14,478 nucleotides of DNA from a virus. Taxonomy: Duplodnaviria > Heunggongvirae > Uroviricota > Caudoviricetes. This document shows, in pieces, positions 5,007-6,144 of the stretch. The notes beneath the pieces were generated by a model. The model was not told the origin of the DNA. It did not search any database and saw only the letters and a program-made list of their open reading frames with translations. The number at the start of each line of letters is the position of its first letter. Position 1 is the first letter of the stretch. The translations under genes were made by a program, and so were the position numbers. The stretch lies in the IMG/VR virus record IMGVR_UViG_2713896899_000013, positions 1 through 14,478 of that record. One strand, written 5' to 3'.

Positions 5007-5656
5007 GCCGCCATCTCCCTGACCAGTTTTTCCGCCTGCTGGCGAACCTGCGCCAGAAACGCCTCACCACATGCCTCAAGTTCATCGCGCCCGATGTAGC
5101 TGATTGCCGGTCCCTTCCAGGTCTTGTCAAAAACAGCAATAGCACCAGCGAAAAAAGCTCCTGTCGGCACCTGCTTCTCGTCCTTCGGGATAAACCAGGC
5201 AGGCAGTTCAAAACCAATACGCCCGCGAATAAAAGCAATATGGTCCGCATCTTCCGGCCACCACACTTCGCTGGTGGCAGCTTTGATCAGGAAAACATAG
5301 CGCCCGCCCTTATCACGCATGGAACTGGCATGTTTCATGATGTAACGCATGCCGGTGATGTATTGCCCCTCATGCTGACTGGCGCGGCTGTATGGGGGAT
5401 TACCAAAGGCAGCACCTTTAAGCTCCGCAAGACGTTCTGACCAGTCATGCGCCAGCGCGTTATCTTCCGCCGTGTAATACGCGGCACATTTGGCGTTATC
5501 ACCGTCAGTAAACAGATCCAGAACAAACGGGCCAAACAGGGTGTTAATTCCCCAGAAAATGTTGTCCGGCGTGCGCCACTGATCGCCCACTTCCTTCAGT
5601 TCATGGGCTGGTTTGTTCCGCAGTTCCACCAGCGCCTGGCAATATTTATTACTCAT
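5003..5656 (-). CDS. Phage orphan DNA N6-adenine methyltransferase (Dam-like)
   Basis: Catalytic motif AAFGNPPYS ((D/N)PPY); likely start is the ATG at 5656 (GGGGG 4 nt upstream, TAATG overlap with the upstream stop) rather than the track's GTG at 5689. Confidence 0.75.
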   Translation of the reverse strand: MSNKYCQALVELRNKPAHELKEVGDQWRTPDNIFWGINTLFGPFVLDLFTDGDNAKCAAYYTAEDNALAHDWSERLAELKGAAFGNPPYSRASQHEGQYITGMRYIMKHASSMRDKGGRYVFLIKAATSEVWWPEDADHIAFIRGRIGFELPAWFIPKDEKQVPTGAFFAGAIAVFDKTWKGPAISYIGRDELEACGEAFLAQVRQQAEKLVREMAA

Positions 5657-6144
5657 TAAGCCCCCACGTAATTCCCTGACAGATACCACTCTTCACCCGA
5701 TGCAGCGCGCTTGCTGCTTTTCCGTAAGCACCGCTCACGACGCGCCAGAAAATTGTTTCGTTCTGGCTGGGAGTGGCTTTCACGGAATGCCGCCATCCAC
5801 ACGGTTGCAGCACGACGGTATAAGCCCCTGGACTCCAGTTCTTCAGCCTGGCGGGTCAGGCACAAAATCACCCGAGGATCGTTAGTGCCGACATAGAAAT
5901 TGCGCACAGGTCTGGTTTCACGAACTGGTTGTGGTTCCGGCTCCTGCACTCTCTCAGTCAGGCGCGGGAAATGTCTGCGTGTATCTCCTTCACAACGGTG
6001 AGCCACACGCCCACTCTGACGTAACTTGCTTGCTGACTGCAGAACGCGCTGCCGTGAGTAACCTGCAAAAGCATCCGCAATGTCTCCGGAAGTACACCCC
6101 GGATGGGCTTCAATGAATTTCTGAACGTCATTTAACAGACTCAT
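5656..6144 (-). CDS. Hypothetical regulator, possibly PerC/Pch-like in its C-terminal half
   Basis: C-terminal LESRGLYRRAATVWMAAF resembles the PerC-family core as I recall it (uncertain); the ATG at 6144 lies 2 nt after the O-like stop, with an alternative GTG at 6150. Confidence 0.45.
   Translation of the reverse strand: MSLLNDVQKFIEAHPGCTSGDIADAFAGYSRQRVLQSASKLRQSGRVAHRCEGDTRRHFPRLTERVQEPEPQPVRETRPVRNFYVGTNDPRVILCLTRQAEELESRGLYRRAATVWMAAFRESHSQPERNNFLARRERCLRKSSKRAASGEEWYLSGNYVGA

Follow-up and report, generated by a model that had tools for sequence, protein, structure and literature searches.

What does a lambdoid prophage encode directly after its replication initiator, the position at which lambda carries the helicase loader P? 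The question is raised by an open reading frame (ORF) in a 14,478-nucleotide stretch of Caudoviricetes DNA (IMG/VR record IMGVR_UViG_2713896899_000013; the whole stretch is called the window here), for which an earlier note, made from the sequence alone, had proposed a regulator of the PerC/Pch type. The ORF runs on the - strand from an ATG at 6144-6142 to a TAA at 5658-5656 and codes for 162 aa; translation from the alternative GTG at 6150 would yield 164 aa, the form found in the Prokaryotic Genome Annotation Pipeline (PGAP) annotation and in Escherichia coli K-12. The product is 98% identical in amino acids, over 164 aa, to K-12 YfdN (b2357, cryptic prophage CPS-53); with orf40 of Shigella phage SfV it shares 96% identity. 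These are the same gene with the same neighbors, the initiator yfdO upstream and the methyltransferase gene dam (yfdM) downstream, although yfdO and yfdM of K-12 are much shorter ORFs than their window counterparts, the early operon being intact in the window. We identify the ORF as yfdN, which belongs to the delayed-early rightward operon of a lambdoid E. coli prophage of the SfV/CPS-53 kind. Its family membership is already known as annotation, RefSeq/PGAP naming the gene 'yfdN: PerC family transcriptional regulator', and the assignment of a PerC core is not new. What we add is the two-domain architecture, evidence against a role like that of P and an observation on the tail of the initiator. 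We would place YfdN in a separate two-domain subfamily, one with a PerC core, and not among the Pch proteins.

The PerC likeness had been recognized in the earlier note from a C-terminal peptide, LESRGLYRRAATVWMAAF, which corresponds to residues 103-120 of YfdN, and a hidden Markov model search bore it out. The Pfam PerC profile (PF06069) matched residues 98-149 at 36.1 bits (E 7.8e-9) against a gathering score of 22.6 bits, and precomputed PF06069 matches are present on nearly all close relatives. Full-length YfdN was matched by PHROG 1324 ('transcriptional activator', E 1e-78). We also compared the two-domain family with an alignment of five short PerC proteins, among them PerC of enteropathogenic E. 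coli (EPEC); hhalign returned a probability of 99% (E 9.5e-18) over 55 columns, and 10/11 invariant columns of the short-PerC alignment are kept in YfdN, K7 alone being altered, to Q. By BLASTP, EPEC PerC (from pMAR2) and YfdN are 37% identical over 46 aa (E 1e-6). What YfdN has in common with PerC (BfpW, encoded on the EPEC adherence factor (EAF) plasmid) and PchA/B/C is a core of ~50 residues, K-A-x-x-L-E-x-x-G-[LF]-[YW]-R-R-A-A-x-x-W ... R-R-x-x-C, and PerC/Pch and YfdN alike are carried by mobile elements of Enterobacteriaceae.

In front of this core lies a second folded domain. The AlphaFold (AF2) model built from the family alignment (pLDDT 86) has three helices and a beta-hairpin at residues 1-60, a winged helix that could be superposed on solved winged helices (MarR/ArsR-like). 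It is joined to the core by a linker that is predicted to be disordered (residues 61-89; pLDDT 54-59 at residues 61-80) and is gapped and variable in the alignment. The three core helices (90-105, 109-122 and 126-144) were predicted with pLDDT 96-98, and the tail, residues 146-162, with low confidence. Both folded domains are basic, with isoelectric points of 9.4 for the winged helix and 11.1 for the PerC core. An exhaustive HMMER search gave 98 representatives, about 30 of which (24-48% identity, 138-165 aa) align end to end with YfdN; both domains are kept in these thirty relatives, and the architecture is held in relatives down to about 25% identity. L103, R111 and A112 are invariant across the two-domain family, which also keeps a tail motif absent from PerC/Pch, L-[AS]-G-x-Y-x-G, with G157 and G161 nearly invariant. 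Comparison with a 70%-identical relative gave a ratio of nonsynonymous to synonymous substitution rates (dN/dS) of 0.13 for the whole protein; the PerC core had 0.08 and the linker 0.37. Purifying selection is evident in both folded domains and weaker in the linker.

Searches against solved structures returned only generic likenesses. The PDB sequence search with YfdN gave no match at E <= 10, and Foldseek searches of the PDB with a single-sequence model gave weak matches, all at E > 0.1, to winged-helix proteins (AsnC/Lrp-type feast/famine regulatory proteins and PadR) and to TPR/MIT domains; the BFVD structure matches likewise were generic winged helices. No PADLOC defense model matched YfdN. 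The idea that YfdN is a fusion of PerB to PerC was dropped, as PerB looked unlike a winged helix when judged by eye, no alignment having been run. We also dropped a fusion of PerC with the MarR protein encoded behind a perC-like gene on a plasmid; judged likewise by eye, this protein looks like a canonical full-length MarR. In a 214-aa relative, a single PerC core seems, by eye, to be preceded by two tandem winged-helix-like repeats at the N-terminus, which suggests that the combination of a winged helix-turn-helix (wHTH) with a PerC core is modular.

The more specific label 'Pch-type' did not hold up. YfdN has the additional N-terminal winged helix and a different C-terminal tail, and aligns only to positions 5-56 of the 90 in the PF06069 profile; a PerC protein in the usual sense, a single domain of ~85-105 aa spanning the whole profile, is not what we found. 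PerC and Pch are single-domain proteins of 89-104 aa in which the core stands at the very N-terminus and the C-terminal extension bears an 'MG' motif, whereas the YfdN core is at residues 96-145, behind the winged helix. The classical PerC/Pch-like proteins that we compared are 62-104 aa long and are short PerC proteins, verified PchA-E sequences not being among them; a blastn search with perC DNA returned EAF plasmids only, and the names on protein clusters went no further than 'PerC family'. The settings also differ, PerC/Pch genes being morons or genes of plasmid operons and yfdN lying inside a phage early operon. The neighboring family of ANR proteins (Aar, Rnr, Cnr; NF033650) resembles YfdN as well, as a small, all-helical, three-helix unit from the same ecological setting, and the NCBIfam ANR model aligns to residues 96-142, but at 23.5 bits, under its curated cut-off of 32. 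ANR proteins are single-domain proteins of less than 10 kDa, usually encoded with an AraC/XylS-family activator, whereas YfdN has 162 aa and no AraC-family gene was found in the window or in related loci. Some proteins that match Pfam PerC carry ANR as their name in one source, and the PerC/ANR boundary is blurred.

The ORF had been taken for a gene, and the support for it goes well beyond chance: the matches to PerC and to PHROG 1324, the dN/dS of 0.13, and its presence in 2674/5426 complete E. coli genomes, at up to four copies per genome, and in 56 phage records, including SfII, SfIV, mEp460, Stx2c and Stx2k phages and Salmonella ST64B. Genomes of enterohemorrhagic E. coli (EHEC) are among the carriers. 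The small ORFs that overlap yfdN in other frames have no support. A 326-bp contig in an assembly of Fredinandcohnia humi (Bacillaceae) codes for YfdN residues 92-162 at 97% identity; it is almost certainly E. coli contamination of that assembly.

As the earlier note had stated, yfdN directly follows the replication initiator. The initiator stop codon TGA (6149-6147) ends 2 nt ahead of the yfdN ATG, which is preceded by a Shine-Dalgarno sequence, GAGGG (6154-6150), read like the stop from the sequence; at the other end, the yfdN stop overlaps the dam ATG (5656-5654) in TAATG. Translation of yfdN is coupled at both ends, with that of the initiator before it and with that of dam after it. A scan of 4600-8400 revealed no sigma-70-like promoter on either strand and, over 4600-8100, no terminator-like site on the - strand. 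Since neither was found around it, yfdN appears to be an internal cistron of one long operon, which reads leftward in the window and from which the cI-type repressor gene (8319-8993) is oriented divergently. The lack of promoter-like and terminator-like sites on the yfdN strand from cro to the nin-like genes fits one transcript, made only after repressor loss. The earlier note had considered a regulator at this position unexpected, which it is not: SfV/CPS-53-like early operons have regularly been laid out in this way since SfV orf40, RefSeq annotates the gene accordingly and, the arrangement being the rule in this phage group, it comes as no surprise.

What YfdN does we can approach through its relatives. 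With moderate confidence, and by analogy, we favor YfdN being a dispensable, accessory, DNA-associated modulator of transcription, an anti-silencer or an anti-regulator/anti-activator, rather than a helicase loader or a LEE-specific activator (LEE, locus of enterocyte effacement). The protein would be made early, from within the lytic operon, after loss of the repressor. Its winged helix, perhaps also its basic core, would place it on DNA. There the PerC core could remodel a nucleoprotein complex that represses transcription, which is what Pch does with H-NS/StpA/Hha at LEE1; alternatively, it could sequester a partner regulator, in the way that ANR proteins tie up AraC-type activators and H-NS. 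The DNA-binding-type fold, the PerC core and the place in the early operon were observed; the remaining steps we infer from the relatives. At LEE1, Pch relieves silencing by altering the H-NS/StpA/Hha complex, and it is associated with DNA at many loci; direct contact between Pch and H-NS was not seen (PMC4764244). ANR are three-helix proteins that bind AraC-family activators (PMC4983702) and, reportedly, histone-like proteins (PMC5570504). A PerC-like protein of a phage-inducible chromosomal island (PICI) represses LEE1 (PMC11773190), and PchD and PchE hardly activate ler (PMC5931665). Several points weigh against a role in transcription. The literature yielded no experiment on YfdN itself: yfdN was named 'the K12 unique PerC homologue' and deleted from a ler::lacZ reporter strain as a precaution (PMC5931665), and its other mentions were incidental. 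The K-12 annotation is 'uncharacterized protein YfdN' and that of SfV orf40 is 'unknown'. In addition, the tight positional linkage to the initiator, seen at 170/175 loci as described below, could reflect a role related to replication.

The closest competitor to the modulator role is that YfdN is specifically an ANR-type anti-activator or anti-regulator, whose core would bind and inactivate a host or phage transcription factor or H-NS through protein-protein contact and whose winged helix would be a second module, for protein binding or dimerization instead of DNA binding. The alignment of the ANR model to the very residues of the PerC core, the binding of AraC-family activators and reportedly of histone-like proteins by ANR three-helix proteins, the repressor activity of the PerC-annotated PICI protein and the ANR names of some Pfam PerC matches all speak for it. 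The scores are ordered the other way, however, with ANR under its cut-off and PerC above its own; YfdN is twice the size of an ANR protein, and no AraC-family gene is nearby. We consider this reading unlikely.

A Pch-like virulence activator that switches on ler/LEE or similar loci in the lysogen is less probable still. The conserved PerC core, the activation of LEE1 by PerC and PchABC and the occurrence of yfdN on Stx2c and Stx2k phages and in EHEC genomes would suit such a role. Against it, about half of the complete E. coli genomes carry yfdN, K-12 and commensals included, and most yfdN-carrying E. coli are expected to be without LEE. The gene lies in a repressor-controlled early operon with no promoter-like site found, so that it would be expected to be silent in a stable lysogen. 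Moreover, PchD, PchE and PICI PerC-like proteins have no, minimal or opposite effects on LEE1, and the C-terminal half of PerC/Pch is absent from YfdN. Because of the distribution of the gene and its place in a repressed operon, specific activation of LEE is unlikely as a general role of YfdN.

The position of yfdN raises the further possibility that it is a replication accessory in the slot of lambda P, an adaptor for host DnaB/DnaC that docks on the tail of the initiator. The initiator gene holds an array of at least five direct 15-nt repeats at 6639-6790, with more at 6910-6949 (consensus CAGATTTTGACGGGT, core TCTGACGG/TTTGACGG, with nested inverted repeats), which codes for the SDxSKSD-rich middle of the protein; by analogy with the lambda ori inside gene O, this array is probably the phage origin. 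yfdN is thus a positional analogue of the genes for lambda P and DnaC-type loaders, lying directly after, and coupled to, an origin-binding initiator with iterons, and Pfam/NCBIfam matches and annotation revealed no helicase or helicase-loader gene in the early operon. We collected 176 loci with a two-domain YfdN-type ORF, whose products form 11 clusters when grouped at 80% identity. At 136 loci a gap of 2 nt separates the upstream gene from the YfdN start, and at 34 the two overlap by 4 nt, giving 170/175; in these coupled loci, which span 8/11 clusters, the upstream gene is an HTH_36-type initiator. Two unrelated initiator 'bodies' are alike only in their last ~25 residues, REDPYFKASYDNVDYSQIPAGFRG (window codons 6150-6224), and distant lineages retain the end ...IP[AE/D]GFRG (examples of such tails, on unrelated bodies, are ...DYSQIPAGFRG, ...AYTIPEGFRG and ...IPDGFRGAKS). 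The DNA homology between the window and SfV (97.7%) begins at 6222, 25 codons inside the initiator gene, and this joint puts the initiator tail and yfdN in one mosaic block. A tail that moves with yfdN recalls the pairing of the lambda O C-terminus with P.

The linkage proved to be looser when we started from the tail. A scan of viral contigs for IP[AE]GFRG followed by a stop gave 119 stretches. The next gene was a YfdN-type ORF in 88. Another ~25 extended far enough downstream to show a non-YfdN gene behind an initiator of this kind, mostly overlapping it in ATGA; the gene was one for a Dam-type, D12 or C5 methyltransferase, a 99-aa membrane protein or, at one locus, a DnaC-like protein (judged by eye from its N-terminus, not by a hidden Markov model). 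We therefore rejected the tail as a YfdN-specific feature; it belongs to the initiator family in general and is plausibly a patch for recombination. In five E. coli-type IMG/VR contigs among these ~25, the initiator tail and dam are separated by a remnant of 49-94 nt, with no yfdN. Phage cdtI (positions 3498-3548 of its record) has a clean 395-nt deletion, corresponding to window 6066-5672, that leaves 26 yfdN codons between the same initiator tail and dam. This phage is reportedly an inducible prophage. The obligate company of the initiator that a helicase loader would keep is thus missing, both in the ~25/119 stretches and in phage cdtI. YfdN-type genes also were found in other places, immediately before Q in a phage that encodes a DnaB of its own, first after alpA in a PICI-like island and after recT in another locus.

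Taken together, these genome comparisons point to yfdN being, probably, a dispensable, movable cistron. The earlier note had named homology to a replication accessory protein as a finding that would overturn its proposal, and we found none: YfdN had no similarity to P, DnaC, DnaT or any other replication family in Pfam, NCBIfam or PHROGs (E <= 1 or 0.01) or in PDB sequences (E <= 10), nor does it share the fold of lambda P or DnaC, and natural deletions of the gene occur in related phages. This weakens the replication-partner reading, which we hold to be very improbable. Equally remote is a version in which YfdN would replace P as a link from the origin to transcription or helicase recruitment, docking on the ...IPxGFRG tail in phages without a loader gene, with the PerC core as a general module for recruiting proteins and not a transcription factor. 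A milder variant is that the wHTH-PerC fusion might be a 'Rosetta stone', implying that the short PerC/Pch proteins need a separate DNA-targeting partner.

Table 1. Parts of yfdN and genes of the early operon, with positions in the window
Feature	Position	Strand	Remarks
yfdN coding sequence, 162 aa	5656..6144	-	Operon order 5; 98% identity to K-12 YfdN; the same as SfV orf40
N-terminal winged-helix domain, residues 1-60	5965..6144	-	Three helices and beta-hairpin wing
Disordered Pro/Glu/Arg-rich linker, residues 61-89	5878..5964	-	Low pLDDT, variable length and sequence
PerC/ANR-type three-helix core, residues 90-145	5710..5877	-	Motif LESRGLYRRAATVW ... RRERCL; Pfam PF06069
C-terminal tail, residues 146-162	5659..5709	-	Ends WYLSGNYVGA; alignment of two-domain family
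Translation-coupling junction, GAGGG and initiator TGA	6145..6154	-	Read from sequence
Cro-like	within 8028-8270		Operon order 1
CII-like (Phage_CP76)	7433-7996		Operon order 2
DUF4222	7078-7257		Operon order 3
Replication initiator (HTH_36 N-terminus, O-like)	6147..7088	-	Operon order 4; Pfam, PHROG matches
dam, phage N6-adenine methyltransferase	5003..5656	-	Operon order 6; PF05869 E 9e-46, TIGR01712 254 bits
LexA-DNA-binding-domain-only protein, 108 aa	4680-5006	-	Operon order 7; PF01726, 69 bits
RusA	4294-4683		Operon order 8
KilA-N	3477-4274		Operon order 9
DUF968	2480-3475		Operon order 10
Q	2118-2477		Operon order 11

The surroundings of yfdN (Table 1) have features of their own. Different phages have non-homologous DNA methyltransferases in the slot that follows the initiator or YfdN, PF05869 here and MT-A70 (PF05063) or D12 (PF02086) elsewhere, as well as a C5-type enzyme that was judged by eye from its N-terminus rather than by a hidden Markov model; other loci have no methyltransferase in the slot. 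This swapping is functional replacement at a fixed position. The LexA-domain-only protein, which is kept two genes downstream of yfdN in related phages, is without the S24 peptidase/cleavage domain and could be a non-cleavable LexA mimic that acts on SOS boxes during lytic growth.

Outside the operon, the + strand ORFs 304-852 (DUF2441, 182 aa) and 1196-2080 lie downstream of Q, where lysis genes are expected. The latter codes for a 294-aa Lys/Glu-rich protein with a possible coiled-coil and a C-terminal Ion_trans_2-like membrane segment. The two ORFs look like a moron cassette; neither product matched a PADLOC defense model. Between the cI-type repressor gene and yfdP, an ORF on the - strand (9194-9709) codes for 171 aa with a hydrophobic, signal-peptide-like N-terminus; it had no Pfam or PADLOC match and is a hypothetical protein in a related genome. 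The left arm (9800-14064) matches CPS-53/KpLE1, with yfdP-, yfdQ- (10606-11430), yfdR- (11531-12094), yfdS- and yfdT-like genes, an excisionase gene (12707-12925) and an IntS-type integrase gene (12886-14064), and this match marks the window as a prophage of the SfV/CPS-53 family.

Both the name of the gene and its place in the PerC family already stand in RefSeq, which limits the practical value of these findings. YfdN nevertheless, being carried by about half of E. coli genomes, is one of the most widespread proteins with a PerC core, and the winged helix fused to that core gives a way into the question of how the PerC/ANR core, itself poorly understood, is directed to its targets. If YfdN does modulate H-NS-type silencing or host regulators at prophage induction, gene expression would be affected in many strains, commensal as well as pathogenic, with Stx2c and Stx2k lysogens among them.

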